64,000 nt of DNA from Bacteroidia bacterium (GCA_038317095.1 JBBQBB010000009.1:4956-68955), one strand, 5' to 3'. Positions 20,435 through 40,360 are shown, numbered from the stretch's first letter. Numbers and translations: made by a program. The notes: generated by a model not told the origin, from the sequence alone.

Positions 20435-20460
20435 TTTTTTGTTCTTAATTGAGGAAAACT

Positions 20461-20468
20461 TACCTTTG
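20461..20468 (+). promoter_or_regulatory. -7 promoter (TACCTTTG) for the tRNA-Lys transcript
   Basis: TAnnTTTG with a TTTG (-33-like) element near 20438-20441, followed by GCAGTCCC as in Bacteroidetes stable-RNA promoters. Confidence 0.7.
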
Positions 20469-20523
20469 CAGTCCCGTTAACAAAACGGGTCGTTCTAAAA
20501 CCCACTCGCAAGAGTTAAAATTT

Positions 20524-20647
20524 GATTCCGTATCTCAGTCCCAAAGACTTCTTAAGTCTGTAAGACTTAGAATCTCGAGGGTTCACGACAATCTAATTTG
20601 CCCAAAGCATATAAGATTCGTCGGGATTGGCAGAGTAAAGAATCACC
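20524..20647 (+). pseudogene. Disrupted tRNA-Lys copy with an 88-nt hairpin insertion in the D-loop
   Basis: 20524-20539 matches tRNA-Lys 20701-20716 at 15/16. After the insert (20540-20627), 20628-20638 matches 20717-20727 at 9/11. GAATCACC at 20640-20647 can close an acceptor-like stem. Anticodon and T arms are absent. Confidence 0.7.
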
Positions 20648-20700
20648 CGTTCTGAAAATAACTCGCAAGAGTGAAAATGTTCTCGTAATGAGAAAAATAT

Positions 20701-20776
20701 GATTCCGTAGCTCAGTTGGTAGAGCAATACACTTTTAATGTATGGGTCCTGGGTTCGAGTCCCAGCGGGATCACCA
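20701..20776 (+). tRNA. tRNA-Lys (TTT)
   Basis: GATTCCGTAGCTCAGTTGGTAGAGC...CTTTTAA anticodon loop...GGTTCGAGTCCC...GGATCA-CCA. Confidence 0.97.
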
Positions 20777-20798
20777 ATTAATTTCAGCATTCATATCT

Positions 20799-20832
20799 AA
20801 ATGCCTCATAATCAACGTTATGAGGCATTTTC
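20799..20832 (+). terminator. Hairpin/terminator after tRNA-Lys
   Basis: AAATGCCTCATAA-tcaacg-TTATGAGGCATTT inverted repeat followed by T-rich sequence. Confidence 0.6.
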
Positions 20833-20876
20833 ATTTTCAGGATTTCTCAGTTTAGCTCCGTTTTGGCATAGTTTTG

Positions 20877-20939
20877 TTACACCAATTTTTAACCAAGGCA
20901 AAAGTTTCCGATGGTAACATACAGAATTACAGACACTTA
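20877..20939 (+). repeat. 63-bp direct repeat, copy 1
   Basis: TTACACCAATTTTTAACCAAGG...ACAGACACTTA, identical to 21709-21771. Confidence 0.9.
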
Positions 20940-21129
20940 TACAAAAGAGGATTCATCTTAGAGGCTACGAAATCGTTTAAAAACTTGGATATACTCGTCC
21001 AAGGCAGGTAATAATGAACACTTATTCGCTATATAACCTTGAATTCCAATAACTTTTTATATTGTTTTGCGATTTGGGATTATTATACTATTATTGCCAA
21101 AACAATCCATTATTTTACTTTAAAAATCT

Positions 21130-21309
21130 ATGCTAAAAAAATTCAATATGCCAGAACTAGTCATTCTAGCAACGATAGTAGCCCTAATTTTTATTTCTGA
21201 GTACTATTATCTTTTTTTAAATGATCCTATGAGAGCTATTTTTATTGGATTATGGCCGCCAACAATGATTGGTTTGCTGATATATATAAACTTGAAGAAA
21301 AAACAATAA
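21130..21309 (+). CDS. 59-aa two-TM membrane protein (not in ORF track)
   Basis: Manual translation MLKKFNMPELVILATIVALIFISEYYYLFLNDPMRAIFIGLWPPTMIGLLIYINLKKKQ; A-rich TAAAA upstream of the ATG. Confidence 0.75.
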   Translation: MLKKFNMPELVILATIVALIFISEYYYLFLNDPMRAIFIGLWPPTMIGLLIYINLKKKQ

Positions 21310-21314
21310 GGGCT

Positions 21315-21458
21315 ATGGACAATCTTGATATAATCTTACTAACCGTTTTAGTTGTCATTTCTTATGTTGCTTTTATCGGTTTAACGGCTAGAGAATTTAA
21401 TAAAATGTCTAAAAACTCGGATCAATTGGGAAAAGAAAAAGGCACTGATCCAAATTAA
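21315..21458 (+). CDS. 47-aa single-TM protein
   Basis: MDNLDIILLTVLVVISYVAFIGLTAREFNKM...; ATG lies 5 nt after the previous stop (track start 21252). Confidence 0.7.
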   Translation: MDNLDIILLTVLVVISYVAFIGLTAREFNKMSKNSDQLGKEKGTDPN

Positions 21459-21708
21459 ACGAAATCAACAACTTCATTTTTTTATATTACTGTGCGATAT
21501 TTATGTAATTTAATTTTTTTAAATTACAAATGTAGTGACTATAAATGGGCCAAAAAAAAGACCCTTAATTGTCCTCTGAACAAAACGTTTTCTGAAGGCT
21601 TTTACATCGGAATATTTGGTAACATCTTACAAATGAAATTCATTGAAGTTACAGACGTCACTGCCACGATGACAGCGACTAAAGGCAATTATCGCAGCAA
21701 AGCCTATT

Positions 21709-21771
21709 TTACACCAATTTTTAACCAAGGCAAAAGTTTCCGATGGTAACATACAGAATTACAGACACTTA
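21709..21771 (+). repeat. 63-bp direct repeat, copy 2
   Basis: Identical to 20877-20939 and immediately upstream of the attR-like site. Confidence 0.9.
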
Positions 21772-21805
21772 AATAAAAGCAGATACGTCCCAGCAGGATC
21801 ACAAC

Positions 21806-21834
21806 AAAAAAACACGCTGCAAGCGTGTTTTTTT
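21806..21834 (+). terminator. Intrinsic terminator, probably the original tRNA terminator displaced by the islet
   Basis: AAAAAAACACGCT-gca-AGCGTGTTTTTTT directly after the attR-like copy. Confidence 0.8.
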
Positions 21835-21959
21835 GTTTAAAAGGTGCCCCCAACAGGCGGTATAATTTAATTGCTTTAAAAATTATCCAAAATGAATCTT
21901 ATTTTTCAAAATGATAGATTCAATAAATACATTACATTGCAGCATCAAAATACACTTCC

Positions 21960-23336
21960 ATGAATGAATATTTTCCTATGGTTATTAAAGTAAAACAGTT
22001 TTTCGCAACGGGCAAAACCTTGTCTGTTGAATTTCGTAAACAGCAACTGCTAGGGTTAAAGCAGGCGATTTTGAAAAATGAGGAGAACATTTACCAAGCC
22101 TTATTTTCCGACTTAAAGAAAAGCAAAGAAGAGGCTTGGATTACCGAAATTGGTTTTGTTTTAAATGAAATAAACGTTGCACTGAAAAATTTAGATCACT
22201 GGGCAAAATCCAAGAAGGTGAGTACCAATTTAATCAACCTTCCATCTTCTAGTTCAGTGCATTCCGAACCCATTGGTGCGGTTTTGGTTATCGCCCCTTG
22301 GAATTATCCTTTTCAATTGCTGTTTGCTCCGCTTGTAGGTGCCATTGCGGCAGGTAATTGTTGTGTACTCAAGCCTAGTGAATTGGCTCCCCATACATCG
22401 GCCATAATGCATAAAATAATTGAGGCAGCTTTTCCGAAAGAGTATGTTTTGTTGCTCGAAGGGGAAGGGCATGAGCTAATTCCAAATCTGATCCATGCGG
22501 ATTTGGTAGATTGTGTTTTTTTTACCGGTAGTTCTAAAATTGGCAAGCTAGTTTACAACATGGCTGCCGAGCATTTGTTGCCCGTTACTTTAGAGTTGGG
22601 TGGCAAAAGTCCTTGTGTAATTGATGCAAGTGCAGATATAAAAATTGCCGCCAAACGCATTGCCATTGCCAAATTTAGCAATTGTGGTCAAATGTGCGTA
22701 GCTCCAGATTATTTGCTGGTTCACAGCAGTGTAAAAGAGCTTTTTATAAAAGAAATTATACATTGTATAAAATTATTTTTTGGTGAAAATGATTCCAACA
22801 ATTATCAATATGGTAAAATTATCAATGAAAAACATTTCGACCGTTTGGCGGGCTTTTTGAAAAGTGGGAACGTTTTGCACGGCGGCAATACAAATAGAGA
22901 AACGCTGTATTTTGAACCCACGGTTTTGGATGCTGTAGATTTAAATAGTGAACTGATGCAAGAAGAAATTTTTGGGCCAATACTCCCGATTATTTCTTAT
23001 TTAGCGGATGAAGAAGCCATGTTATTGATTAAAAAACACCCAAATCCTTTGGCTTTTTATATTTTTTCTGCTTTCAGTGAATCACAAAAAACATGGTTAA
23101 AAAATGTGCCATCTGGCGGGGCCTGCATTAACAATGCAAGTTGGCATCTCACCAATCCCAATTTGCCTTTCGGCGGAAGGGGATTTAGCGGAATTGGCAA
23201 ATACCATGGTCAATTTTCTTTTCAAACGTTCAGTCATTTTAAGGCCATATTAAAAACGCCCACTTGGTTCGATCCTGCTTTTAAATACCCACCATTTAAA
23301 GGAAAGTTGAAATGGTTTAAAAAAATATTGGGGTAA
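21960..23336 (+). CDS. Aldehyde dehydrogenase (ALDH3-like)
   Basis: APWNYP, FFTGS, LELGGKSP, catalytic Cys in GQMCVAPDY, EEIFGP, PFGG. Confidence 0.96.
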   Translation: MNEYFPMVIKVKQFFATGKTLSVEFRKQQLLGLKQAILKNEENIYQALFSDLKKSKEEAWITEIGFVLNEINVALKNLDHWAKSKKVSTNLINLPSSSSVHSEPIGAVLVIAPWNYPFQLLFAPLVGAIAAGNCCVLKPSELAPHTSAIMHKIIEAAFPKEYVLLLEGEGHELIPNLIHADLVDCVFFTGSSKIGKLVYNMAAEHLLPVTLELGGKSPCVIDASADIKIAAKRIAIAKFSNCGQMCVAPDYLLVHSSVKELFIKEIIHCIKLFFGENDSNNYQYGKIINEKHFDRLAGFLKSGNVLHGGNTNRETLYFEPTVLDAVDLNSELMQEEIFGPILPIISYLADEEAMLLIKKHPNPLAFYIFSAFSESQKTWLKNVPSGGACINNASWHLTNPNLPFGGRGFSGIGKYHGQFSFQTFSHFKAILKTPTWFDPAFKYPPFKGKLKWFKKILG

Positions 23337-23394
23337 AAAAGAAATTATTTCATTTGCTGAAATTTTTCTCTCATTTTTTCTGTAATTTGCATTT

Positions 23395-24156
23395 ATGTTT
23401 TTCTTCTTCTCAAAACTATTTACCATTCTCATACGTCCGCTATTTTGGATCGTAGTTTTAGGGGCTTGGTCGCTTTTTACCAAAAATACCAAAAGAAAGA
23501 AGAGACTTACGATTTTAGTAATTTGTCTGGCATTTTTTTGTTCCAACAAAGTAATTGTGAATGAATTTTCCCTTTTGTATGAATCTAAGGTTGAAATATT
23601 GGATAGAAATCATCCGAGAACTGCTGTTGTTTTAGGGGGATTTGCAGAATACGATGGGGGCCGCAAACGTGTGCAAATGGCCATGGCAGCCGAAAGAATG
23701 TTCGAGGCTTACCGTTTGTATAAAAACCATACATTAGACACACTCATCATAAGTGGCGGCGCGGCTAGTCTTACCAGCAATCAAAAGCCAGAAAGCCAAT
23801 ACATTCGGAAATATTTAATCGATTTGGGCATGGATTCAACGGTAATTCTCATTGATACAGGTTCTAAAAATACCTTTGAAAACGCAGTCCAGACCAAAAA
23901 AATATTGGTTAGGCAAAATCATAAGGCTCCTGTTCTATTAATTACCAGTGCAATGCATATGCCCAGGGCAAAAAGGGTGTTTTCAAAAGTTGGAATTTTA
24001 GCTCAACCATATCCTGTCAATTTTTTATCTGATTTGGGTCGTGGCTATGTTATAGGAGATTATCTTATGCCATCATCAGAAGCATTATACCATTTTGATG
24101 CTTTGATAAAAGAATGGGTGGGTTTGATAGTATATAAACTGACGGGTAAAGCCTAG
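23395..24156 (+). CDS. YdcF/ElyC/SanA (DUF218) family membrane protein
   Basis: VVLGG, IISGG, SKNTFENA, LITSAMHMPRA, KEWVG. Confidence 0.92.
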   Translation: MFFFFSKLFTILIRPLFWIVVLGAWSLFTKNTKRKKRLTILVICLAFFCSNKVIVNEFSLLYESKVEILDRNHPRTAVVLGGFAEYDGGRKRVQMAMAAERMFEAYRLYKNHTLDTLIISGGAASLTSNQKPESQYIRKYLIDLGMDSTVILIDTGSKNTFENAVQTKKILVRQNHKAPVLLITSAMHMPRAKRVFSKVGILAQPYPVNFLSDLGRGYVIGDYLMPSSEALYHFDALIKEWVGLIVYKLTGKA

Positions 24157-25559
24157 AAATCCAAATAAATAAAGGGCAGGCTATCCATGCCAGTAATTTG
24201 GTAGGCCATAAAAATGGTAGCAACCAATAAAATCGACAATAACGGGGCAGGTAGTTTTTCAAACCAAGTTATCAAATCATCGTAAATAATTTGCAACACA
24301 AATTGAAATAGGAAAGAACCCAAAATAATGGCAAAAACCCATGGATAATTTTGCATCCATTTTCCGAAAAAATGCAATTCGGGTTTGTTGAATATATAGG
24401 TCAACATGGCCACTCCTGATTGAATGCTATCCGCCTTAAAAAAGATACCGCTTAAGGCCAAAAACAAAAAGGTTAGCACAAAAGACATGATGTGATATGG
24501 ATAATTGGGAATTCGTTTTTTTAAACCCTCTCTTAAACGCACGGTCAAAATATCCCAACTTAAAGCTATGCCATGCAGCATGCCCCAAAAGGTATAATGC
24601 AGCTTGGTGCCATGCCAAAAACCACTGACAATAAACGTAATCATTACTGCCAAAACCGTACCGTATTGTTTGAGTCTGCGAAACGAAAAAGCGAGTGGAA
24701 AATACAAATATTCATTCAACCATTTAGACAAACTCATATGCCAACGTCGCCAATATTCTGAGATGTTCTGAGAAACATAGGGGAAATTAAAATTGGCAAC
24801 AATATCAATACCCAACAACAAAGAAATACCGATAATAAAATCTGTATAACCGCTAAAATCGAAGTAAACCACTAGGGCTTGCCCAAATGTAGCCATTAGA
24901 TTTTCTATACCTGTAAACAAGTGTGAGTTGTCGAAAACCCGATTCACAAAATTGATTGCCAAATAATTGGCCAATATATATTTTTTTACAATTCCGGAAA
25001 TAAGGAAAAAAATCGCTGCTCCTGTTTTAACATTCGATGCGTTAAATGGTTTTTTTATTTGGGGTAAAAAGTCGCGCGCAGGTTGAATAGGCCCAACCAA
25101 AATGAGGGGAAAATAACTCAAAAATAACAAATATTCGCTAAAATTATGTTCGGGCTCATCTATCATTTCCCTTTGCACATCCAGCACATATCCAATGCTG
25201 CGAAAAATAAAAAAGGAAACGCCTACAACCCGCGGCCATCCTTTTAAATCCGAGAATGAGAACCAATCTGAAAAATGGTTCCAAGTAAGCAAAATGCCCA
25301 AATCAATAACCAATGACAAAATCAGAAAAACCCGTTTATTAACTTCAGATTTCGATTTATAAATGCTTTTGGCAACGATAAAATCTGAAAATGCAACGAG
25401 AATTAAAATAAAAATTCCTGTTCCACTCAAGAAATAATAGAAACCAAGACTGGCGGCAAGTAGCAACCATTTCCTCGCACTTAGATTTGAAGAAAAAAAA
25501 TAATAGAAAATGTAAAAAATGGAAAAAGAAACGATAAAAAGCGATGAATTAAATTGCAT
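24153..25559 (-). CDS. MBOAT-family O-acyltransferase (AlgI/PatA/DltB-like)
   Basis: Multi-TM; GVSFFIFR, YFDFSGYTD, YWRRWHMSLS, catalytic SGFWHG. Confidence 0.95.
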   Translation of the reverse strand: MQFNSSLFIVSFSIFYIFYYFFSSNLSARKWLLLAASLGFYYFLSGTGIFILILVAFSDFIVAKSIYKSKSEVNKRVFLILSLVIDLGILLTWNHFSDWFSFSDLKGWPRVVGVSFFIFRSIGYVLDVQREMIDEPEHNFSEYLLFLSYFPLILVGPIQPARDFLPQIKKPFNASNVKTGAAIFFLISGIVKKYILANYLAINFVNRVFDNSHLFTGIENLMATFGQALVVYFDFSGYTDFIIGISLLLGIDIVANFNFPYVSQNISEYWRRWHMSLSKWLNEYLYFPLAFSFRRLKQYGTVLAVMITFIVSGFWHGTKLHYTFWGMLHGIALSWDILTVRLREGLKKRIPNYPYHIMSFVLTFLFLALSGIFFKADSIQSGVAMLTYIFNKPELHFFGKWMQNYPWVFAIILGSFLFQFVLQIIYDDLITWFEKLPAPLLSILLVATIFMAYQITGMDSLPFIYLDF

Positions 25560-25560
25560 T

Positions 25561-27351
25561 TTATTTTACTCGTAATACTTGACCTATTCTTAAACTGGTG
25601 CCTCGCATATTATTTAATCTCTGCAACGCTGTTGTGCTGGTGTTATATTTACGGGCTAAACCAAACAAAGTTTCCCCGCTTTTAACTTTGTGGTAAATGG
25701 GTTTTGGAACAACAACCGCAGGCCGTTGAACAGACGGTTTGGCTGGTAGCACTTGCGGTTTGGGTTGCACTTGCGGTTTGGGCGCAGGCGGTATTGTTTG
25801 TTTTTTAACCGTATCTTTAGGTACATTGGTTATTGGGGTAACCGGATTTTGGGGTATAGCAATTGCCACTTTATAAGGCGCATATACTTTCAACAATTGA
25901 CCAATCCATAAATAATTATTTCGCAATCGATTCCAAACTTTAATTTGGTATGCGGTAACGCCGTAATAATTGGCTACGCTAAAGATGGTTTGGCCGCGCA
26001 CTACCCTATGATAAATCCATTTGTATTGGACGGTAGTAGCCACTTGGTTTTTCAATGCTGCAGAATCTACGGGTGGGTGCGCCAGTGAATCTATGTTGTA
26101 AACCAATTTTTGGGTAGTGTCATTTGCCAATAACCATTCGTATGTTTTTTCATAGGCTTCTGCAATTAATTGGCCTTTAAGTTTATACCCTTGACCTGAA
26201 AGATGCACCAAATCGCGGTTTGAGAGCATGGAGCTGTTCCATTTTAACATCGAATACCGGCCTCCTGCAATCCAATACCAATCATAAAATGCTGTATTGT
26301 TTGCTTTGCTAAATGATGCAATAAGGTCCGAATAAACCGCACATTCTGGCAAGCTATATCCACCCCTATAAATATCTTGAGAACAACTAAAAATGATGGT
26401 TATTTCCTTATTGTATCTGCGCAAAATATCAACCATTTTAGACATATTGCTGGTAAATTCTGTTTGATTCAATCCACCACGGTAGAAATCGTTGGCTCCG
26501 ACATCAATAATTACCGCATCCGGTGCTATATAATGCAATTGTTCTTCTAGTAAATTTTCACGCAACAACGAATAAAATCCAGCTCCATTGATGCCAACAC
26601 TGTGGAATAAAACCCCTTTGTCTACTGGGTTTTCAATGCTAATGCCATAAATTTCAAATTCACTTTGCGCCGAATCGGTTTGTTGCAAGTAAAATGACAT
26701 CTCATTTTCGCCCTCTTCCAATGTTACGTCTACAACATTTACTGGCGCTGGTCCTTCTTTTTGCGCATCATAAACATCCACATTGATTTCTTGTCGGGCT
26801 GTTTTTATACGCAAATCATAACTGCTTGCATTGCGTTTACAAAATATTCTAAGTTTTCTAAATTCTGGTTTAATTGTATTTCTAAAATGCAAACGAAACG
26901 ACGCATTTTTATCATACGTTTTACTTGTAATACCGCTAGCGCCCAAACTCAAAGGAGGTAAAGCTTCTATGTTTTTGGCATAAATCCAACGGCCTGTATG
27001 GTCGGTAAAATAATCCACCGCAGCATGCGTGTGTCCGGTAGAGTAGGGAAAAACCATGCCTCGGCCGCCATAGCCAAACGTTTGTTGTAACTGCTCCCTA
27101 ACCTCCCCCGTGAATCCATCCGCTTGAACATGTGAATCGCCAATATGCAATATGGTAACGCGTTTTTTATATGCATTTTGCAACTTTTTAAAAAACGGTT
27201 CAACGGCAGATCGGTTGTAAAACTGAATGCTGTTTAATTCTGGATGTAAAAAGCTATAATTGTAATAATTGTTTGCGGGCCAAAAAGGAAACGCAGGCGC
27301 AGGGTCGCGCAGGGTAGGTGCTGCAAACAATGCAAATGCGCCCAGTGCCAA
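25561..27351 (-). CDS. SGNH/GDSL acyltransferase-hydrolase (PatB-like) with two C-terminal LysM domains
   Basis: HIGDSH, GINGA, GAND, DLVH; LysM repeats YHRVVRGQTIF... and YHKVKSGETLFGLARKY... separated by a Pro-rich linker. Confidence 0.9.
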   Translation of the reverse strand: MALGAFALFAAPTLRDPAPAFPFWPANNYYNYSFLHPELNSIQFYNRSAVEPFFKKLQNAYKKRVTILHIGDSHVQADGFTGEVREQLQQTFGYGGRGMVFPYSTGHTHAAVDYFTDHTGRWIYAKNIEALPPLSLGASGITSKTYDKNASFRLHFRNTIKPEFRKLRIFCKRNASSYDLRIKTARQEINVDVYDAQKEGPAPVNVVDVTLEEGENEMSFYLQQTDSAQSEFEIYGISIENPVDKGVLFHSVGINGAGFYSLLRENLLEEQLHYIAPDAVIIDVGANDFYRGGLNQTEFTSNMSKMVDILRRYNKEITIIFSCSQDIYRGGYSLPECAVYSDLIASFSKANNTAFYDWYWIAGGRYSMLKWNSSMLSNRDLVHLSGQGYKLKGQLIAEAYEKTYEWLLANDTTQKLVYNIDSLAHPPVDSAALKNQVATTVQYKWIYHRVVRGQTIFSVANYYGVTAYQIKVWNRLRNNYLWIGQLLKVYAPYKVAIAIPQNPVTPITNVPKDTVKKQTIPPAPKPQVQPKPQVLPAKPSVQRPAVVVPKPIYHKVKSGETLFGLARKYNTSTTALQRLNNMRGTSLRIGQVLRVK

Positions 27352-27368
27352 TATGGATGTAAAATGTT

Positions 27369-28766
27369 TTATTGTATTTTATTTAAAAGGTTTTCTACCT
27401 GCATTTCATTTTTAATTTCTCCATACATAGCTTTTGCAAATTTCATTTGGCCGGCTGCAGATAAATGGCCATCTAAGTTTGCATAACCTCTTTTAACCCA
27501 TGCAAGAATACCGCCATCTTTTACCATCAACGCTTGCATGTCAAAAAAAGCACAACCTGTATTTTCTGCAGCTTTTCTCAATGCCTCAGCTAAAACGGTC
27601 ACACCAGGGTAACTAAACGCTTGATCATTGGAAACAAAGCCCATATCGCCAGGCGAGATTACCAAAAATGAGGCATTGGGTAAAAGTCTGCGGTAACGGC
27701 TGAACATGCTTTCAAACTCTTTACGGAAATACTCAATGTTTTGATTTGCTTTAATATAGGGAACCATATTGTTGCCAAAATGAAACACAACCAAGTGAGT
27801 GTTCAATTGCCTAGCTTGAGATTGAATAATATTGTCAGATATATACTGCAAGCCGTCGCCAGAATGGCCGCGAATGCCGCAATTGTCTACTTGAATTCCA
27901 CCATTGCCTTCAAGTAAATAGCCGTAATAATTGGTTGCTGAGGGAACCTGAATTTGTACAATGCCGTAGAGTGGTTTTGAAGACAAAAGTACTTTTTCGG
28001 CTGTATTTGTAGGTTGGATGGAGATTTTGCGCTGCTCAGAATCTTTTCCATTCAAACTTACTTTGCCGCCTTTACTATTACCATATAGCAACCACAACGA
28101 TTGATACTTTTGACTTGGAGAAATCCAAATGCCTGTGTTTGCTTTAAAATTGCTGTCGTTTACGTTTAGCTTAAAAACTTTGCCCGCAAATCCAAATCCT
28201 TTTGGTGTTTTATTTACAAAACAATTGAGTTTAAACCAAGAGTTTCCAGGTTTAAGCTCAATCGTACGATAGCTCGCAACATCACTGAATGGAACATAAC
28301 CGAGTCCACTTCCGCCAAAATCTGCTTGCATCAATGTTCTTAAATCTTGCGTAATTCTGTCACCTTCTATCTGCGAATCGCCGTAGTACCAAATATGCAC
28401 AGTAGAGTCTTGTCGATGATCTAATGCATGAAAAAAATTAGACAACGCGCTTTTGTGTGGCGTTACTAAAAAATTTTCTAAAAAATTAACTTTTGATTTT
28501 AGTGTATCGATGGCTAGTTTTTCTGCAACAGATAAGCTGTCATAATTGCGCTGTTTTTTAATTTGCAATTTGGGTCTAGCTGCCGATTTAATAGCTGTAC
28601 TGGGAAACCAAGTGTTTGTAATTTCTGATTGGGCTGGAAATTGCAAACCCATTTTTTTTAATTTAGCAGAAAGTGTTGGATTGGAAAATGCAAAAACAAC
28701 GGCACCCGTTAAGCCCACAGTAAGTAGAACTGTTAAAATAGGTTTGTTGTTTTTTATGTTTGGCAA
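27369..28766 (-). CDS. Membrane-anchored SGNH/GDSL-family protein
   Basis: N-terminal TM; YYGDSQIEGD, GIRG, FGNN, DGHL. Confidence 0.88.
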   Translation of the reverse strand: MPNIKNNKPILTVLLTVGLTGAVVFAFSNPTLSAKLKKMGLQFPAQSEITNTWFPSTAIKSAARPKLQIKKQRNYDSLSVAEKLAIDTLKSKVNFLENFLVTPHKSALSNFFHALDHRQDSTVHIWYYGDSQIEGDRITQDLRTLMQADFGGSGLGYVPFSDVASYRTIELKPGNSWFKLNCFVNKTPKGFGFAGKVFKLNVNDSNFKANTGIWISPSQKYQSLWLLYGNSKGGKVSLNGKDSEQRKISIQPTNTAEKVLLSSKPLYGIVQIQVPSATNYYGYLLEGNGGIQVDNCGIRGHSGDGLQYISDNIIQSQARQLNTHLVVFHFGNNMVPYIKANQNIEYFRKEFESMFSRYRRLLPNASFLVISPGDMGFVSNDQAFSYPGVTVLAEALRKAAENTGCAFFDMQALMVKDGGILAWVKRGYANLDGHLSAAGQMKFAKAMYGEIKNEMQVENLLNKIQ

Positions 28767-28767
28767 A

Positions 28768-29013
28768 TTAAGATTGGGTTTTTATTTGTATTAAATCTAC
28801 AAGGTCGCCAACATTTTTTAATGTAACCAATTCCTTTAACTTAAATTTGATTTGAAAAACGCTTTCAACCTCGGCAATCATGCTGAGGTGTGTAAGTGAA
28901 TCCCATTTTGGCACCATATCCGCATTGAGATCTCTGTGTATCAGAATTTCGGGTTGGTTGAATATTCTTGCAAATAGAATTTGCAAGTTTTTACTAATTT
29001 CTGGACTGTCCAT
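28768..29013 (-). CDS. Acyl/aminoacyl carrier protein
   Basis: 81 aa; WDSLTH phosphopantetheine site; VESVFQIKF..NVGDLVDLI. Confidence 0.92.
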   Translation of the reverse strand: MDSPEISKNLQILFARIFNQPEILIHRDLNADMVPKWDSLTHLSMIAEVESVFQIKFKLKELVTLKNVGDLVDLIQIKTQS

Positions 29014-29014
29014 A

Positions 29015-29665
29015 TTACATAATGCGTTTCAGCGCAATTCTTGTTTTGCTAGGAAGCAAAGTTAGAACAACATCGTCTGCGGCAGTATTTTTTGCGTCTT
29101 CTAAAAATCCACATTTTGTGTATGAGTGTAGCGCTTTTTCGTTGTTTTCCATTAAATGGATCTCTGCATAGGTGGATACAATGTCTTCTGATGGGTAATT
29201 CGCAACAACAAAATCTATCAGTTGGCCTATGATACCTTGACCTCTAAAGTCAGGCGCTGTATATATATTCTCCAATTGAAGTGCGCCATGGCTCCGAGGA
29301 ATTTGAACCATTGCCACGGATTCCAATTGGGATTTAGATTTCTGCCATTTATCGCCCAAAAAATATGACATAGCCTGCGCTTTTAAAATTCCTGAACCTA
29401 AGCCATTTAGTCCTTCAATCCATGCACTTAAACAGGCCGCCTGCTTATTTGCATACTCAGCTATATAAAAATGTGCCAAACACCATTCTTGGCCTTCCAA
29501 TTCTTCATCTAAAATGTTAGATATCAGTTGTTCCACTTCCAATTCAGTAATATTAAATATCCGACTATAGGATAGTACTTCGGTTCCAGATTTTTCAGCT
29601 TCAATAATAGCATTGATAATAAAAGGGATATCCTCCGTATTGGCTTTTCTAAAATGGATATTCAT
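29015..29665 (-). CDS. GNAT-family acetyltransferase
   Basis: FRKANTED, IYTAPDFRGQGI acetyl-CoA motif, NEKALHSYTKCGF. Confidence 0.88.
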   Translation of the reverse strand: MNIHFRKANTEDIPFIINAIIEAEKSGTEVLSYSRIFNITELEVEQLISNILDEELEGQEWCLAHFYIAEYANKQAACLSAWIEGLNGLGSGILKAQAMSYFLGDKWQKSKSQLESVAMVQIPRSHGALQLENIYTAPDFRGQGIIGQLIDFVVANYPSEDIVSTYAEIHLMENNEKALHSYTKCGFLEDAKNTAADDVVLTLLPSKTRIALKRIM

Positions 29666-31158
29666 AGTTTTGAAAAAGCATATTTACGCAATTCTTTTTT
29701 ATCCGTTTTTCCGTTGCTATTGAGAGGAAATTCGGCAATGGAAAGCACCAAATTTGGCGACATATAACCAGGCAGCCTAGAAGCAATTTCACCTTTTATG
29801 ATTTCTGGATCTGCTGTAAGATTTTGAATAAATAAAGCCAACATCCAATTTTCTGCAGCGTCCTGAAAACCAATTGCAATGCTGGTATGAGCAGGTAAAA
29901 TATGCGATGCCGCCAATTCGATTTCGGCCAATTCTATCCTAAATCCTTGAATTTTTACTTGGTCATCACTTCGGCCCACATAAAATATTTCCTGCAATTC
30001 ATTTTGCATCACCAAATCTCCAGTTCTATAATATCGCTTGTTTTCATGGATAAAAAAGCTTTTGGAATTTTGCAATTCGTTGTTCAAATAACCCGTTGTA
30101 ACTTGTTCTCCCGCTATGCAAAGCTCCGCTTCCAATCCAGCAGTTTCAATTTTTTGCTTCTCTTTAAACAATGCTACTTTTACTTCGTGCATGGGCTTGC
30201 CTATGCCCACAATTCCATTTAAGCTATTCAATTCAGGGTTTTTAGCATCAATGGTTTGGGTTGTGCAGTAAATGGTAGCTTCAGTTGGCCCATATACATT
30301 GTCTATGCGCGCATTGGGAATACATTTGCTCCATGCTGCAACCAAATTGAATTTTAGGGCTTCGCCACAAAACTGAGAGTACTTTAACGAGGGCAATTCG
30401 ATGTCATCAAAATAAGGCTTTAATAGGTTAATGGCACTCGGTACCATTAAGCAAAAGGTTATTTCATGGCTTTCTAGCGTATGGTATAAGCCCAAAGTTT
30501 TGATCATGCCACTAGGCAAAGTATAAAAAGAAGCTCCAAGTGTCAATGGGATTGCAAAGCACATTACAGAAAGATCGAAAGTAAGCTCGAACATTTGCAA
30601 AAAACGATCGGTAGAATCTAATTTGTACCCAATTTGGTTAAAACCGTTTATGAAACATTGAAGATTTGCAAAAGAAATAGGAACACCTTTGGGTTTTCCG
30701 GTAGTTCCTGAAGTAAACAAAATATAAGCATTTTTGTTTTCATCAGGGTAGGTGTTAAATGGCGCTGCAGGAGGAAGATCTGAACAATTTACCCAAGTTA
30801 TAGGTGTAAATTCGCTGCTTTTCGATTCCATTTCATTTGACCCTTCGGCACAAAATACATGCGTAATTTCCGACTCTTCAAAAATTGATTTTAACCTTTC
30901 TGAAGGGTAGGACGCGTCAATTGGCACATAGGCTTTTCCAGACAACCAAGTTGCAATTATTGCCGCGTAAGTGGAAATGTGGTTTTGGGTAACAATGCCA
31001 ATGGTTGTGCTGCCTGTTCTGAGTATTTTAGCTTGGATGCTTCCAACCAGTTTGCCAAAATCACGGTAATTTTTTTTAGATTCATTGATAATACAAGCAA
31101 TATTATCGCCTCCATGGATTAGGTTTTGAAGAATTAATTCTGGGAATTGAATGTTCAT
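29662..31158 (-). CDS. Stand-alone amino-acid adenylation enzyme (DltA-like)
   Basis: YILFTSGTTGKPKG, FDLSVM, FCGE, YGPTEAT, YRTGD, GRSDDQVKIQGFRIEL, PLNSNGKTDK. Confidence 0.92.
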   Translation of the reverse strand: MNIQFPELILQNLIHGGDNIACIINESKKNYRDFGKLVGSIQAKILRTGSTTIGIVTQNHISTYAAIIATWLSGKAYVPIDASYPSERLKSIFEESEITHVFCAEGSNEMESKSSEFTPITWVNCSDLPPAAPFNTYPDENKNAYILFTSGTTGKPKGVPISFANLQCFINGFNQIGYKLDSTDRFLQMFELTFDLSVMCFAIPLTLGASFYTLPSGMIKTLGLYHTLESHEITFCLMVPSAINLLKPYFDDIELPSLKYSQFCGEALKFNLVAAWSKCIPNARIDNVYGPTEATIYCTTQTIDAKNPELNSLNGIVGIGKPMHEVKVALFKEKQKIETAGLEAELCIAGEQVTTGYLNNELQNSKSFFIHENKRYYRTGDLVMQNELQEIFYVGRSDDQVKIQGFRIELAEIELAASHILPAHTSIAIGFQDAAENWMLALFIQNLTADPEIIKGEIASRLPGYMSPNLVLSIAEFPLNSNGKTDKKELRKYAFSKL

Positions 31159-32594
31159 GCACCCAGTTTTTTACGAATGATTTCATTCGTTTTTTTCGGA
31201 TCTGCTTTGCCTTTACTCGCTTTCATTACCTCGCCTACAAAGAGAGAAAGCAGGCCAACTTTGCCGTTCTTATATTCGTTTACCTTGTCGGCAAATTTCA
31301 CTAAAACTTCATCAACCAATGTATCAATAAAGGTACCATCTGCGTTTTGGCTTAGATTAAGTTCCTGCACAAGTTCAATGGCATTCTTAGTGGGGTTAGC
31401 CAGCAATGCAGGAAATAAGTTTTGAACAGCTGCACTATGGCTAAGCACTTGCTTATCTACCAATTCAATAATACCTGCCAATTGTTCGGGTTTAAGAATA
31501 AAATCTGCAATGCCCAAAGCATTTTCATTTAAATAACCTCGAACAGCCACTGACATCCAGTTAGAAGCAGCTTTGTAATTGGATGTTTTATTTACCAGTT
31601 CTTCAAAATACAAAGCCGTAGCTTTGTCATCCACCAAAACACCGGCGTCATATTCCGAAAGTCCGTACTTGGAAACAAAACGTTCGAAAAGCACTTCTGG
31701 TAGTTCTGGCATAAGGTGTTTAATCTCATGAATATATTTGTCGGTAAGGATTAAAGGCGGAAGATCTGGCTCTGGAAAATAACGGTAATCATTTACCAGT
31801 TCCTTTTTTCGCATGCTAAAAGTGGTGCCATTAGAACCGTTAAAACCGCGTGTTTCACCTTCAATTTTTATACCTTTTAGAGTCAATTCTGTTTGGCGTT
31901 TAATTTCAAAATCGATAGCACGTTTTACGTTACTTATCGAATTCATGTTTTTAACTTCAACCTTTGTTCCTAGTTCAATTTGACCCACAGGTCGTATACT
32001 TACGTTGGCATCGCACCGCAAACTACCTTCTTCCATATTGCCATCGCAAATGTCCAAATATCTGACCAAACGGCGCACTTCGGTTACAAAAGAATATGCT
32101 TCGTCACCGTTGGTAATGTCTGGATGCGATACAATTTCAATCAATGGAGTGCCTGCGCGGTTGAAATCAATCAGAGAATCGTATAAATCTTGGTCGTGCA
32201 TACTTTTACCAGTATCTTCTTCCATGTGTATGCGAATCAGTCTGATTCTTTTTTTGTCCCCGTTTTTTGGTTTTACGGTTACATATCCATCATTGCAAAG
32301 CGGCGTATCGAATTGGGTAATCTGGTAACCTTTAGGCAAATCTGCATAGAAATAATTTTTTCTAGAATAACTATTTTCTTTGCGAATGTCGCAATGAAGT
32401 GCCAATCCTATTTTAATGGCAGATTCGATCGCTTTTTTATTGTGTTTTGGCAAAGTACCAGGATGCGCCAAACTAATTACGCTAACTTGGGTGTTTGGCA
32501 AAGCACCATATTCCGCACTATCCGCACTAAAAGCTTTGCTCTTGGTGAGCAGTTGAACGTGAATTTCCAAACCTATTACTGCTTCAAATTCCAT
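31155..32594 (-). CDS. gatB: Asp/Glu-tRNA amidotransferase subunit B
   Basis: IGLEIHVQL, RKNYFYADLPKGYQI, GSLRCDAN, DYRYFPEPDL. Start set at MEFEAV because a TAATTTTG promoter sits at 32610-32617. Confidence 0.98.
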   Translation of the reverse strand: MEFEAVIGLEIHVQLLTKSKAFSADSAEYGALPNTQVSVISLAHPGTLPKHNKKAIESAIKIGLALHCDIRKENSYSRKNYFYADLPKGYQITQFDTPLCNDGYVTVKPKNGDKKRIRLIRIHMEEDTGKSMHDQDLYDSLIDFNRAGTPLIEIVSHPDITNGDEAYSFVTEVRRLVRYLDICDGNMEEGSLRCDANVSIRPVGQIELGTKVEVKNMNSISNVKRAIDFEIKRQTELTLKGIKIEGETRGFNGSNGTTFSMRKKELVNDYRYFPEPDLPPLILTDKYIHEIKHLMPELPEVLFERFVSKYGLSEYDAGVLVDDKATALYFEELVNKTSNYKAASNWMSVAVRGYLNENALGIADFILKPEQLAGIIELVDKQVLSHSAAVQNLFPALLANPTKNAIELVQELNLSQNADGTFIDTLVDEVLVKFADKVNEYKNGKVGLLSLFVGEVMKASKGKADPKKTNEIIRKKLGA

Positions 32595-32702
32595 AATACA
32601 ATAGAAAGGCAAAATTACGGCAAACGGCTTTAATAACGTGGGTATGAATGATGAAAATGCATTTTTATTTACCAGATTATTTAAAGTGCCTCATTACTTC
32701 GC

Positions 32703-32710
32703 TAACTTTG
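32703..32710 (+). promoter_or_regulatory. -7 promoter (TAACTTTG) of rnpB
   Basis: TAnnTTTG just upstream of the rnpB 5' end. Confidence 0.75.
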
Positions 32711-32715
32711 CAGTG

Positions 32716-33106
32716 CAGTTCTTCCTGTCGCCTAAACATTATTGTTTTGGAGGAAAGTCCGGGCAACACAGAGCACCGTGCTACCTAACGGGTAGGCTTT
32801 TGATTCGTAAGGGTCGAAAGACAGCCAGTGTCACAGAAACTAAACCGTCAAGGCAAGATTTGCTTCGCCTTGATAAGGGTGAAAAAGCGGGGTAAGAGCC
32901 CACTCGCCGGTTTGTAAAAATCGGTTGGGATAAACCTCACGGGTTGAAAAGCCAAATAAACCCGGTTATGAACTGCTCGTTTAGGTTCGTTGCAAAACGA
33001 ACAACCGGGAGGGTAGGCTGATTGATCCGATTCGCGAGAATCGGACCAGATAAATGACAGGATGTACATAGAAATATGTATAAACAGAACCCGGCTTACA
33101 GGACTG
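32716..33106 (+). ncRNA. rnpB: RNase P RNA (type A)
   Basis: GAGGAAAGTCCGGGC, AGTGTCACAGAAA, GGTAAGAGC, GATAAACC, AGATAAATGAC, ACAGAACCCGGCTTAC; 5' CAGTTC pairs with 3' GGACTG. Ends are approximate. Confidence 0.95.
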
Positions 33107-33185
33107 TTTTTTATTGTGTGAATAGAATGATACTTGAAGAATAAAAATACATAAATTTATTCTTGCCTTTAAGGAGCAGAAGTAT

Positions 33186-33193
33186 TAATTTTG
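33186..33193 (+). promoter_or_regulatory. -7 promoter (TAATTTTG) of tRNA-Gly
   Basis: TAnnTTTG about 35 nt before the tRNA. Confidence 0.7.
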
Positions 33194-33228
33194 CAGCACT
33201 GTAAAAAAGGATATTTATATCCTAACAA

Positions 33229-33304
33229 GCAGAAGTAGCTCAGTTGGTAGAGCATCACCTTGCCAAGGTGAGGGTCGCGAGTTCGAGTCTCGTCTTCTGC
33301 TCCA
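33229..33304 (+). tRNA. tRNA-Gly (GCC)
   Basis: GCAGAAGTAGCTCAGTTGGTAGAGC...TTGCCAA loop...GAGTTCGAGTCTC...TCTGCT-CCA. Confidence 0.97.
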
Positions 33305-33472
33305 AAAGCCCCGGAAACGGGGCTTTTCTTTTGATATGCATTGCGTTTATATATTGTATTCGCCGTTGAATAATAAATTTTATATTGGAGAAACCTCAAA
33401 TATTGAAGAACGGCTCAAGCAACACAATCGAGGCCTAAATCCAAGTACCGCACCATTTGCACCCTGGGAAAT
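33290..33472 (+). repeat. 183-bp direct repeat, copy 1 (tRNA 3' end + terminator + GIY-YIG 5' half)
   Basis: Matches 33756-33938 with 3 mismatches; period 466 bp. Confidence 0.95.
33305..33332 (+). terminator. Intrinsic terminator after tRNA-Gly (repeated at 33771-33798)
   Basis: AAAGCCCCG-gaaa-CGGGGCTTTTCTTTT. Confidence 0.85.
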
Positions 33473-33641
33473 AGCATTTAGTTGCGAAAAGCCCATTCTG
33501 CGAGAAGCATTGAAATTGGAAAAGAAGCTAAAAAACCTACACAGTCATGCCCGGATTATTGCCTTTACCTTGCATTCGCGGAGTCCACTGCGGGAGACTC
33601 CGCGAAATTGGGATGGTTTATGGAAATACCCCAAACTATAA
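33336..33641 (+). CDS. Small stand-alone GIY-YIG nuclease
   Basis: CVYILYS...KFYIGET...ERLKQHN...EALKLEKKLK contains the Tyr, Arg, His and Glu catalytic set. Confidence 0.9.
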   Translation: MHCVYILYSPLNNKFYIGETSNIEERLKQHNRGLNPSTAPFAPWEIAFSCEKPILREALKLEKKLKNLHSHARIIAFTLHSRSPLRETPRNWDGLWKYPKL

Positions 33642-33662
33642 AATAAAATGGGGGTTTGAGAC

Positions 33663-33755
33663 CTCCGACGATTCCATGTTTTGCCCTGAAGGCAAACATT
33701 GGAATGTCGTGAGCCCACGACCGCCTAGGACCCCAAAGTCCAAGGCGCGTCGGGG
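33663..33755 (+). repeat. REP-like GC-rich double-hairpin element fused to a tRNA-Gly 3' remnant
   Basis: Hairpin 1: CGAC-ATTCCA-TGTTT-GCC..GGC-AAACA-TGGAAT-GTCG. Hairpin 2: CACGAC-CGCCT-GGAC-CCCAAA-GTCC-AGGCG-CGTCGGG. Confidence 0.65.
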
Positions 33756-33938
33756 TCGTCTTCTGCTCCAAAAGCCCCGGAAACGGGGCTTTTCTTTTGA
33801 TATGCATTGCGTTTATATATTGTATTCGCCGTTGAATAATAAATTTTATATTGGAGAAACCTCAAATATTGAAGAACGGCTTAAGCAACACAATCGAGGG
33901 CTAAATCCAAGTACTGCACCATTTGCACCCTGGGAAAT
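33756..33938 (+). repeat. 183-bp direct repeat, copy 2
   Basis: See 33290-33472. Confidence 0.95.
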
Positions 33939-33981
33939 CCGAAAATTATTATCAATTATTGTTACCTCTGATGAAATTTAG
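33802..33981 (+). pseudogene. Truncated second GIY-YIG copy (59 aa)
   Basis: First 46 residues are identical to copy 1, then unrelated; lacks the EALKLE catalytic-Glu helix. Confidence 0.85.
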
Positions 33982-33987
33982 GGCAAA

Positions 33988-34015
33988 AAAAAAACCGACA
34001 CTAGGTCGGTTTTTT
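33988..34015. terminator. Bidirectional terminator
   Basis: AAAAAACCGAC-actag-GTCGGTTTTTT between convergent genes. Confidence 0.8.
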
Positions 34016-34032
34016 GATTTTTAAAATTTTAT

Positions 34033-35568
34033 TTACGGTGCTTTGCGGTTTCTTTTGGTTTTCTTATTGATACCACTAGAAGGCAAACCATTGTATTTTT
34101 TCTTACTATTACCTACTGGTGCACCAATGCGAATCATGGCACATCTGAAACCAAGGGTTGAAAGATCTTGTTTTTCATCAAGGAAACGACGTGTACCTGG
34201 AGAAGCCCAATAAACACGATCATTCCAACTTCCACCTTTAATCACACGAGCCTTATTGTTTATCAATGAAGTAACTCCGTATTCATAGGTCATTTCACCA
34301 TCATTGTAATTTTCTTCGTCTTTAAATCCTATGTTGTCAGCTTTCTTATAATTTCGTCGGTTGATGTTTTCAGCTTCAGTTACATCTCTGTAAATTAATC
34401 GACCCAAAGTATCTTTTTGCTCAATGGCTCCGTATTGATCCAATAAAATAGTTTTGTATACGTTACCGCGGAATGGCATAAACTGATCCATATCTTCCAT
34501 ACTTAATGGACGGTATACATCCAATGTCCATTCGGTAACGTTGCCAGACATATTGTATAATCCATAGCTATTAGGCCAGTAAGAGAAAACGGGTGTTGTG
34601 ATAAATCCAGCATCATTTAAGAATCCACCGGCCAAACCACCATTGTCACCTTTGGCACGCAAAACGTTTACACGAATTTTTCCACGGTCCTTTTCTTTGC
34701 CTTCTTTAATGCGAATGGTATAATCATCCCAAGCATATACTTTCTTTTGATCTACATTATCGAACTGTGTTTCGCCCACGTTTGCCTGCGCTGCATATTC
34801 CCATTCTGCTTCAGTTGGTAGTCTGTAATCTGGCAAAAGAATCCCATCTTCCATTTTGGCACGGTAGCGTTTTTGGTCCTTATTTTTAGCCTTAGAATAA
34901 TCTTTTAAAGGTTTTTTGCCCTTTTTAGAGAATTCAAATTGACCCGCAAGATAAGCGCGGGTATTAAAATTATTTTCGGCCACACGGTCTGCATTTACGT
35001 TGTATTTAACGATTCTCTTTTGATCTAGAATCATTTCGTTCACACGATCCGTGCGCCAAGTTGCAAAGTCATTGGCTTGATGCCAGTTAACACCTACTAC
35101 TGGGTAATCTTTGTAGGCAGGGTGGCGGTAATAGTACTCCACAAATGGCTCGTTATAGGCCAACTTACTCCTCCAGCACAAAGAATCTGGCAAAGCGTGC
35201 TGGTAAATGGTTATGTCATCCACAAAAGCTTTTTGTAGCCAATATTCATATTCTAGATATTGAATATTACTCACTTCGGTTTCATCCATATAAAAAGAGT
35301 TCACCGTTACACGACGTTCAACGTTGTCATTGTTATATGTTAAATCTTTTTCGGTTGACCCCATAGTGTAGGATCCACCTTCTACCAAAACCAAGCCAGG
35401 TCCAGTTTCCTGTCCTTTGTAACGTGGATTGGCAAATCCACCCCATTTGGGATCATTGTAGGATTGACCCGTGGTGTTGCTTGCCCTCTTTTTTCCACAT
35501 GAAGATACAGCCATGCTTGCTGCAATGACTGCTATTCCGGCGAATTTTACCAAATTATTGTTTGTCAT
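34033..35568 (-). CDS. gldJ: Gliding motility lipoprotein GldJ (FGE-sulfatase fold)
   Basis: Lipobox VSSC; GPGLVLVEGG, FYMDETEV, YPVVGVNW, YRLPTEAEWEYAA, GFRCAM; divergent from porU. Confidence 0.88.
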   Translation of the reverse strand: MTNNNLVKFAGIAVIAASMAVSSCGKKRASNTTGQSYNDPKWGGFANPRYKGQETGPGLVLVEGGSYTMGSTEKDLTYNNDNVERRVTVNSFYMDETEVSNIQYLEYEYWLQKAFVDDITIYQHALPDSLCWRSKLAYNEPFVEYYYRHPAYKDYPVVGVNWHQANDFATWRTDRVNEMILDQKRIVKYNVNADRVAENNFNTRAYLAGQFEFSKKGKKPLKDYSKAKNKDQKRYRAKMEDGILLPDYRLPTEAEWEYAAQANVGETQFDNVDQKKVYAWDDYTIRIKEGKEKDRGKIRVNVLRAKGDNGGLAGGFLNDAGFITTPVFSYWPNSYGLYNMSGNVTEWTLDVYRPLSMEDMDQFMPFRGNVYKTILLDQYGAIEQKDTLGRLIYRDVTEAENINRRNYKKADNIGFKDEENYNDGEMTYEYGVTSLINNKARVIKGGSWNDRVYWASPGTRRFLDEKQDLSTLGFRCAMIRIGAPVGNSKKKYNGLPSSGINKKTKRNRKAP

Positions 35569-35637
35569 TCGTTTTTTAATAACGTATGTAGTTTAAAAAT
35601 ATTGCGCAAACATAACGATTTTTTCTCCAATTGACTA

Positions 35638-35677
35638 AAAAAAGGTTTTGAATTTGCGTTCAAAACCTTTTCTTTTT
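35638..35677. terminator. Terminator hairpin after the PorP/SprF-family gene
   Basis: AAAAGGTTTTGAA-tttgcg-TTCAAAACCTTTT. Confidence 0.7.
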
Positions 35678-35698
35678 AAATTCTTTTAAAAGTAAATA

Positions 35699-40230: not shown

Positions 40231-40360
40231 CAGAACCTCTTATATAAAAACAACGGTAAATATCGTTTAGTTGACAATGTTTAATAAAATGAAACTTCAA
40301 GAGTTTAATAAACTTCATAGATTTAACTTGGTAAATCCTATTTTTGCAGCAACCAAATAC

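Follow-up and report, generated by a model that had tools for sequence, protein, structure and literature searches.

A six-gene operon of a Bacteroidia bacterium that may place an NRPS-like starter module in front of a peptidoglycan O-acylation trio

The 64,000-nucleotide stretch of Bacteroidia bacterium DNA analysed here (GCA_038317095.1 JBBQBB010000009.1:4956-68955, in the following the window) carries, at 24153-31158 on the minus strand, six densely packed genes that encode an adenylation enzyme (hereafter the ligase), a GNAT acetyltransferase, a small carrier protein, two SGNH proteins and a membrane acyltransferase of the MBOAT family. The reading favoured here, with a confidence that stays somewhat short of even, is that the last three genes form an O-acylation trio in front of which the first three place a split starter module of the nonribosomal peptide synthetase (NRPS) type. 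The trio is a cluster of a known kind, ape1b-ape1c-pat, and the novelty lies in the ligase, GNAT and carrier genes that precede it. The more specific proposal, that some Bacteroidota esterify their peptidoglycan with N-acetylglycyl or N-acetyl-D-alanyl groups built on a carrier and exported through the Tyr shuttle of a PatA-type MBOAT, is possible, if rather unlikely.

Organization of the operon

The open reading frame (ORF) listing returned the six genes with the coordinates and junctions given in a first-pass annotation of the window made from the sequence alone. The gene content proposed there was borne out by the Pfam and NCBIfam family assignments and by the motifs FDLSVM, FCGE and YGPTEAT of the ligase and WDSL of the carrier, all present in the translations. 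From the ligase to the MBOAT, the genes are separated successively by a 4-nt overlap, two 1-nt gaps, a 17-nt gap and a further 1-nt gap:

29662-31158, minus strand: ligase, a stand-alone adenylation enzyme resembling DltA and AlmE, 498 aa (AMP-binding)
29015-29665, minus strand: GNAT acetyltransferase of a distinct family, 216 aa
28768-29013, minus strand: carrier protein, 81 aa (PP-binding, E 7.5e-4)
27369-28766, minus strand: SGNH protein of the Ape1 family with an N-terminal membrane anchor, 465 aa (Lipase_GDSL_2)
25561-27351, minus strand: SGNH protein of the Ape1 family with two C-terminal LysM domains, 596 aa (Lipase_GDSL_2; LysM, E 4.3e-25)
about 25882-26013 and 25564-25692, minus strand: LysM domains of the second SGNH protein
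24153-25559, minus strand: MBOAT, putatively of PatA type, 468 aa (PF03062, E 2.5e-27)

Conserved linkage of ligase, GNAT, carrier and MBOAT

The surroundings of 37 loci from the family of the window (family f1) were compared with the window proteins. All six genes are colinear in 26 of them, at 34-71% protein identity, and the arrangement is therefore not a chance one; conservation of the complete neighbourhood was the check that the first-pass annotation had proposed. Nine further loci are cut by contig ends and hold the expected genes as far as the contig reaches, L141 among them showing a variant order. The remaining two (L139 and L142) have room for the full set and yet lack the anchored SGNH and MBOAT genes, L142 lacking the GNAT gene as well.

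The operon overlaps its neighbours by 4 nt at both ends, the ligase start with the stop of gatB and the MBOAT stop with a convergent gene:

31155-32612, minus strand: gatB, Asp/Glu-tRNA amidotransferase subunit B (NCBIfam GatB equivalog, 619 bits, above cut-off)
23395-24156, plus strand: convergent DUF218/ElyC-like gene, a conserved neighbour to which no role is assigned

Given the overlap between gatB and the ligase, the operon is probably transcribed from a point further upstream. Almost all family loci retain both neighbours, gatB being there in every locus with room for it, and both are missing from the other arrangements of the ligase-GNAT-carrier-MBOAT core; gatB is probably context and not a part of the operon function.

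Beyond the family, a metagenome scan seeded with the GNAT alignment gave 227 relatives, and the 80 loci kept were annotated with hidden Markov models built from the family. The ligase gene lies within 3.5 kb of the GNAT gene in 66 of 73 assessable loci, the carrier gene in 61 of 68 and the MBOAT gene in 38 of 49, several of the misses being contigs that end inside the SGNH genes. The last of these counts runs opposite to the rare linkage of the upstream trio to the MBOAT that the first-pass annotation had named as the finding that would overturn its proposal. When only loci with full room were taken (at least 1.6 kb upstream and 7 kb downstream, n = 22), ligase, carrier and MBOAT were found together in 18, in at least three arrangements. 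The first of these, with gatB and two Ape1-like genes, makes up nine of the 22. The second, ligase-GNAT-carrier-MBOAT, was found in six loci, and in each of the four that were annotated it is followed by an ORF of about 300 aa with a weak match to DltD (PF04914) or DUF1574 in L190 and L173 and no match in Pfam in L234 and L236. The third contains a divergent MBOAT-carrier-SGNH unit, and some of its loci also hold an FkbH-like gene, two GNATs and a double adenylation protein. In three of the full-room loci (L189, L203 and L210) the GNAT gene stands in unrelated surroundings.

GNAT-less forms occur in other Bacteroidota families, with the order carrier-MBOAT-unknown-ligase in L078 and ligase-carrier-MBOAT-DltD-like in L079; weak PF04914 matches are confined to such other arrangements (L079, L190). 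Through all these rearrangements the carrier gene stays beside the MBOAT gene, and the GNAT gene lies almost always between those of ligase and carrier.

Some of these loci carry additional genes. L199 (4502-13978), L200, L178 and L176 hold an FkbH-like gene, a GNAT, a protein of about 840-1006 aa with two AMP-binding stretches and a second GNAT, the whole set facing the divergent MBOAT-carrier-SGNH unit, which suggests that loci of this type assemble larger acyl groups on the carrier. The ligase-GNAT-carrier-MBOAT-DltD-like cluster of L190 has a 4HBT-type thioesterase gene between GNAT and carrier (3250-3681), which may encode an editing thioesterase. A ligase-carrier-GNAT set with a different GNAT, of 162 aa, is found in L081 (9064-12103, genome G223) within a nonulosonic-acid/CMP-sugar cluster that also holds NeuB, cytidylyltransferases and an AAC(3)-like gene; this trio probably belongs to a different system, one for the N-acylation of a sugar.

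The ligase and its candidate substrate

The ligase scores 299.6 bits with TIGR01733 (amino-acid adenylation domain; cut-off 317.4). Its best named matches are DltA models, all under cut-off, the threshold of the DltA equivalog TIGR01734 being missed with 263.3 bits versus 559.85 and that of NF003417 with 278.2 versus 476. LgrA is its best PDB match, and AlmE (4OXI) is among its best structural-database matches. The ten Stachelhaus-type pocket positions (GrsA numbering) were read from HMMER alignments to solved structures and placed via the A4/A5 core motifs. The code of the window ligase is DLMSQCVIYK, including Asp195, Cys264 and Lys484, to be compared with DLMSLCTVAK for B. cereus DltA, DLHTFCLIAK for AlmE and DIASLCIIYK for LgrA module 2. 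According to a review (PMC11253843), DltA activates D-Ala and both AlmE and LgrA module 2 activate Gly; the Cys of AlmE disfavours any L-amino acid bigger than Gly, and the enzyme tolerates D-Ala.

The window code shares six of ten positions with B. cereus DltA and likewise six of ten with the Gly-specific LgrA module 2, and three pocket positions other than the Cys agree with the Gly enzymes and not with DltA. The conserved Asp and Lys point to an alpha-amino acid substrate, and the Cys, the Ile and the aromatic residue suggest a very small side chain; the Val, in place of the Thr of DltA and the Leu of AlmE, would be compatible with Gly or D-Ala. Judged from this code, Gly and D-Ala appear to have roughly equal odds. 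The first-pass annotation had taken the Cys of FCGE to favour D-Ala, an argument that falls with the presence of the same Cys in Gly-specific AlmE and LgrA module 2, and D-Ala, like Gly, is a candidate substrate only.

Most of 88 locus relatives share with the window ligase the code D-L-x-S-(Q/L/M)-C-V-I-(Y/F)-K, and a group of nine ligases reads DVQSITFIYK instead. Ligases of this kind are scarce in a phylum-wide sample (5 of 401 genomes at E <= 1e-60, the window's own included) and common in the window's family (40 of 124 genomes) and order (42 of 191). A search of genome contigs with the ligase alignment picked up generic NRPS motifs and unrelated NRPS loci (L001 being the one inspected).

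GNAT, carrier and their predicted complex

The phosphopantetheine attachment residue of the carrier is Ser39 in WDSLTH (codon 28897-28899), and W37 and S39 are invariant across 41 sequences. The GNAT was modelled confidently (predicted local distance difference test, pLDDT, 95.9; predicted template modelling score, pTM, 0.92), and the model shows, between two core strands, a helical insertion (residues 87-126) that ordinary GNATs do not have. Acidic residues E24, E54 and E84 are invariant, and E60 is nearly so. A profile search of 1.84 billion cluster representatives (50% identity clusters) delimits the family sharply, with 309 representatives at E <= 1e-30, 429 at 1e-10 and 2560 at 1e-3.

Relatives exist in which the GNAT is fused to one partner or the other. 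Ligase and GNAT are joined in P0166 and P0230 (716 aa); P0230 carries both Pfam domains, and P0166 aligns with the window ligase over residues 23-489 (42% identity, E 6e-123) and with the window GNAT over residues 499-711 (31% identity, E 7e-39). GNAT and carrier are joined in P0184 and P0188, of about 300 aa, which have PP-binding domains and the serine motifs GWDSM/GWDSL, and P0275 is of the same length, with a GWTSL motif and no PP-binding match. A tandem GNAT-GNAT of the same family is found in P0165 (440 aa; 533 bits, two stretches).

The model of the GNAT-carrier complex passed its controls, with a score of 0.63 against 0.01 for the best of three controls; the mark applied is reached by 116 of 157 solved complexes and by 2 of 215 mismatched pairs. 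Agreement of the contacts between runs is 100%, with a partner pLDDT of 88 or more. In the modelled interface, carrier residues 38-40 (D38-S39-L40), 42-43 and 59-67 meet GNAT residues 54, 56, 87-101 and 107-126, the last two stretches belonging to the helical insertion specific to this family, so that D38-S39-L40 faces the 87-101 segment next to the invariant S91 and the nearly invariant K95. The R141-G142 loop, the usual site of coenzyme A (CoA) binding, is not among the named carrier contacts of the model, an arrangement that fits the carrier as an acceptor of the GNAT. The complex model thus supports binding of the two proteins. Taken together, the linkage, the fusions and the docking model suggest that ligase, GNAT and carrier behave as the separated parts of an NRPS-type starter module and that the GNAT would act on a carrier-tethered group.

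Searches for an indication of the acceptor among known GNATs gave none: Foldseek with the GNAT model returned generic GNATs only (template modelling score 0.5-0.65, 9-18% identity), and an Atlas search returned unnamed or generic GNAT clusters only. The converse role, with the carrier as acyl donor to the GNAT in the manner of SbzI, was considered and ranked low, because no named contact of the modelled interface falls where GNATs usually bind CoA.

The periplasmic half: two SGNH proteins and an MBOAT

The LysM-bearing SGNH protein matches 4k3u/4k40 among PDB sequences (phmmer, E 1e-17), as well as the SGNH esterase 8gld, over residues 51-398, and the anchored one matches the same entries over residues 119-448 (E 2e-6 to 8e-7). 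The entry 4K40 is N. meningitidis Ape1, a peptidoglycan O-acetylesterase with an extra domain inserted within the SGNH domain. In both window proteins, blocks I and II lie about 165-180 residues apart, and neither protein matches PF04914 (DltD) in the Pfam scan. These homologies place both proteins in the Ape1 family and not in the PatB or DltD type of the systems with which the first-pass annotation had compared the operon. The target which that annotation proposed, peptidoglycan, is made more likely by the Ape1 homology of both proteins together with the LysM pair.

The catalytic residues are well kept. The anchored protein has GDS (Ser131), GxN (Asn333) and D432-x-H434, conserved at 95% or more in 32 sequences, and the LysM-bearing one has GDSH (Ser73), GAND and DLVH; GDSH/GAND/DxxH is found in 22 of 24 aligned homologues, the two exceptions being degenerate variants. 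By eye, homologues of the anchored protein carry the N-terminal membrane anchor and several homologues of the LysM-bearing one start with a hydrophobic stretch resembling a signal peptide.

The notable PDB relatives of the MBOAT are DltB structures only (E 1.6e-25), and its sole NCBIfam match is the DltB equivalog TIGR04091, with 167.9 bits against a cut-off of 375 that is not reached. His316 in FWHG aligns with DltB and is kept in 95% or more of 36 sequences. Relative to DltB, the chain is extended at its C-terminus by about 94 residues, the last six of which read FIYLDF (residues 463-468; 24156-24173; Tyr465), and 36 of 36 MBOAT homologues in the loci, carrier-linked ones included, end in F-x-Y-x-x-F/Y. 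According to Anderson et al. 2025 (PMC12148441), PatA acetylates itself on the Tyr of an FxYxxF motif at its C-terminus and PatB uses the acyl-Tyr, DltB relies on a separate microprotein, DltX, that bears the motif, and the MBOAT/SGNH pathways of the fused-tail type lack a carrier protein. Judged from its tail, the window MBOAT is probably a PatA-type enzyme with a fused FxYxxF acyl shuttle and not an enzyme of the DltB plus DltX form.

In order and content the last three genes match the ape1b-ape1c-pat cluster reported from Bacteroides and Porphyromonas by Weadge et al. 2005 (PMC1199599), who measured O-acetylation of Bacteroides peptidoglycan at 27-69%; the earlier remark that an MBOAT with two SGNH genes is common in the phylum agrees with it. 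The only other MBOAT of the genome (L161; G000 contig C49, 2835-5378) has the tail FVYFQF; a gene for a 364-aa protein without Pfam match follows it and an AlgH-like gene lies upstream, and no carrier or ligase gene is nearby.

Proposed pathway and alternatives

In the favoured reading, the ligase would activate Gly or D-Ala and load it onto the phosphopantetheine of carrier Ser39, and the GNAT, docking on the carrier, would cap the tethered amine, most likely with acetyl from acetyl-CoA. The MBOAT would then use the carrier-bound acyl group, instead of acetyl-CoA, and move it to Tyr465 of FIYLDF on the periplasmic side. From there the anchored Ape1-like enzyme would take the group on its catalytic Ser and the LysM-bearing one would follow, the end point being an ester on the peptidoglycan glycan. 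Such a handover between two enzymes would parallel that of AlgJ and then AlgX in alginate acetylation, as given in part of PMC9487903.

Several observations weigh against this reading. Within the family, gatB and the DUF218 gene are as conserved as the operon itself, and within-family synteny alone is therefore weak evidence. Three loci of genus g194 retain ligase and carrier without the MBOAT and the anchored SGNH protein, which indicates that these two can persist once the periplasmic part is lost. In L186, GNAT, carrier, Ape, Ape/LysM and MBOAT follow one another with no ligase within 10 kb upstream, an order that fits poorly with a GNAT whose sole task is to cap an amino acid loaded by the ligase. 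The CoA-binding motif of the GNAT is degenerate, and likeness to a solved GNAT-carrier complex (8zt4, 9-11% identity) may have aided the complex model in passing. On the periplasmic side, Ape1 itself is an esterase and not a transferase, and part of PMC12148441 assigns the MBOAT tail type to enzymes that use acetyl-CoA, so that plain acetyl-CoA-dependent O-acetylation by the last three genes is a possible activity. Finally, a quick tree of 68 MBOAT sequences, for which the careful search is unfinished and the distance-based labels are wrong in a few rows, gives no support to a donor-specific clade: carrier-less MBOATs nest among carrier-linked ones, with 13 label changes where the minimum is 3.

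The g194 variants L139 (6701-8452), L142 (9315-11075) and L141 (genomes G588, G577 and G573) have gatB-ligase-(GNAT)-carrier directly before the LysM protein. In L139 and L142 the catalytic Ser of the latter is replaced by Ile and its DxxH is gone, so that it looks like a decaying or repurposed periplasmic part. Each of these genomes has three to four other MBOAT matches, one of them in G588 directly after a carrier gene of its own (L154), a hint that ligase and carrier can also work in trans with other MBOATs.

That two modules merely share an operon is the alternative that survives best, although it is distinctly unlikely. The last three genes would O-acetylate and de-O-acetylate peptidoglycan from acetyl-CoA, and ligase, GNAT and carrier would make a cytoplasmic product or feed a transferase encoded elsewhere. 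The putative PatA-type fused tail of the MBOAT would suit this division, as would the carrier-less MBOAT-Ape pairs of the same family (L151-L153), the persistence of ligase and carrier without MBOAT in g194, the ape1b-ape1c-pat cluster of Bacteroides, which in the account taken from PMC1199599 works without a carrier, and the pairs of adenylation enzyme and carrier in clusters for sugar modification, accompanied by a GNAT in L081 but not in L080. However, the carrier gene abuts the MBOAT gene also where both Ape1-like genes and gatB are absent (L173, L175, L190, L234, L236 and others), and clusters of adenylation enzyme, carrier and MBOAT devoid of GNAT occur (L078, L079); adjacency maintained across such rearrangements is not expected of an unrelated module. 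The caveat of the first-pass annotation, that the three upstream genes could be a separate module, keeps little force in view of the MBOAT linkage in several arrangements, the fusions and the complex model, and these genes are better described as an add-on to a trio of the ape1b-ape1c-pat type.

Less probable again is a route like that of Dlt, in which an uncapped glycyl or D-alanyl group passes from carrier to MBOAT to SGNH protein to peptidoglycan, adding positive charge, and the GNAT has a side role such as editing, regulation or acetylation of something else presented on the carrier. The ligase and carrier do resemble those of DltA and AlmE systems, which deliver free aminoacyl groups, and the GNAT-less clusters L078, L079 and L142 are in keeping with such a route. 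Nevertheless, the position of the GNAT gene between ligase and carrier in nearly all loci, its fusion to either partner and the predicted docking of the GNAT at the Ser39 face of the carrier speak for a role on the pathway.

The least probable of the alternatives weighed is that the GNAT puts acetyl on the carrier thiol and the MBOAT uses the acetyl-carrier for ordinary O-acetylation, the ligase giving a second, alternative acyl group or being dispensable. The GNAT loading domain of the curacin synthase reportedly loads acetyl onto a carrier thiol in this way. Acetyl loading would explain the ligase-less cluster L186 and agrees with the predicted place of the carrier on the acceptor side of the GNAT, but the ligase stands beside the GNAT in 66 of 73 assessable loci and forms a single chain with it in two proteins, the acidic residues E24, E54, E84 and near-invariant E60 would suit an amine acceptor, and PatA-type MBOATs take acetyl-CoA directly (part of PMC12148441), which leaves a detour through the carrier without obvious use.

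Genomic context

The window is a piece of ordinary Bacteroidota chromosome that also encodes MutS and GyrB. A type IX secretion/gliding group lies at 34033-41578 and comprises a GldJ-like lipoprotein, which scores under its equivalog cut-off, PorP/SprF, a 1123-aa PorU-like C25 peptidase and PorV. A gene for a NamZ-family exo-beta-N-acetylmuramidase, an enzyme of peptidoglycan recycling, is found 17 kb from the operon (48572-49900, minus strand).

Significance

Peptidoglycan O-acylation controls lysozyme resistance and autolysin activity, and acetyl is, to our knowledge, the only O-acyl group known on the peptidoglycan glycan. In the favoured reading, the operon predicts an undescribed cell-wall adduct, which would represent a new class of wall modification in a major environmental phylum. 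Moreover, it would mean that fused-shuttle MBOATs can be fed by a carrier, contradicting the generalisation that they use acyl-CoA only, and that ligase, GNAT, carrier and MBOAT make up a portable donor core, which combines with more than one type of periplasmic SGNH transferase, Ape1-like and LysM-bearing here and DltD-like elsewhere. Literature searches, which did not cover supplements, found no paper on a ligase, GNAT and carrier joined to a fused-shuttle MBOAT. The candidate adducts can be told apart by their predicted mass shifts, +57/+71 for a free aminoacyl group, +99/+113 for an N-acetyl-aminoacyl group and +42 for acetyl, and ligase, GNAT and carrier are small soluble proteins, hence the system is directly testable. 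The GNAT family, with its 309 representatives at E <= 1e-30, offers a simple marker for finding such systems.

Comparison with known systems

Among peptidoglycan O-acetylation (OAP)/Pat systems, the ape1b-ape1c-pat cluster, as presented in part of PMC1199599, has the same order as the last three genes, two Ape1-family SGNH genes and then the MBOAT gene. With PatA/PatB/Ape1 of Neisseria and Campylobacter, as described in part of PMC12148441, the operon shares the catalytic His of the MBOAT and the C-terminal FxYxxF Tyr shuttle, and its SGNH proteins are homologous to N. meningitidis Ape1, down to the insert between blocks I and II. Compared with these systems, the operon adds a co-conserved ligase, GNAT and carrier directly upstream, is without PatB, and has two LysM domains on one Ape1-like protein and a membrane anchor on the other.

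In the DltXABCD system, which D-alanylates teichoic acid in Firmicutes, there is likewise a stand-alone adenylation enzyme with a small carrier, an MBOAT and an SGNH-fold protein, and by analogy the acyl group would in both cases go to the Tyr of FxYxxF before the SGNH-fold protein completes the transfer. The operon differs in that none of its components scores high enough for a Dlt equivalog, the shuttle motif is part of the MBOAT and not carried by DltX, the SGNH proteins are of Ape1 type and not DltD, a GNAT stands between ligase and carrier, and the host is a diderm without teichoic acids. AlmEFG, which adds glycine to lipid A in V. cholerae, is a precedent for envelope aminoacylation in a diderm, and AlmE shares the Asp, Leu and Cys pocket residues and a small carrier partner with the operon. 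In contrast to AlmEFG, the operon has MBOAT and SGNH enzymes and its predicted target is peptidoglycan and not lipid A; an AlmG-type lipid A aminoacyl transferase is not among the ORFs of 20000-36800.

The closest counterparts of the cytoplasmic parts as a set are the NRPS initiation modules with N-capping, such as the F-A-T module of LgrA, in which the F domain formylates the carrier-tethered amino acid (Val-S-carrier). The same parts are present in the operon, in the order ligase, capping enzyme and carrier, and its relatives include fused forms, and the SbzI-SbzG pair (8zt4) is a case of a GNAT working on a carrier protein, as the docking predicted for the operon GNAT would have it. Unlike those modules, the operon encodes its parts as separate proteins with no condensation or release domain, and its product is proposed to pass to a membrane acyltransferase and not to a peptide assembly line. 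By analogy with these systems, the operon would thus be Dlt-like on the cytoplasmic side and PatA/Ape-like on the periplasmic side.

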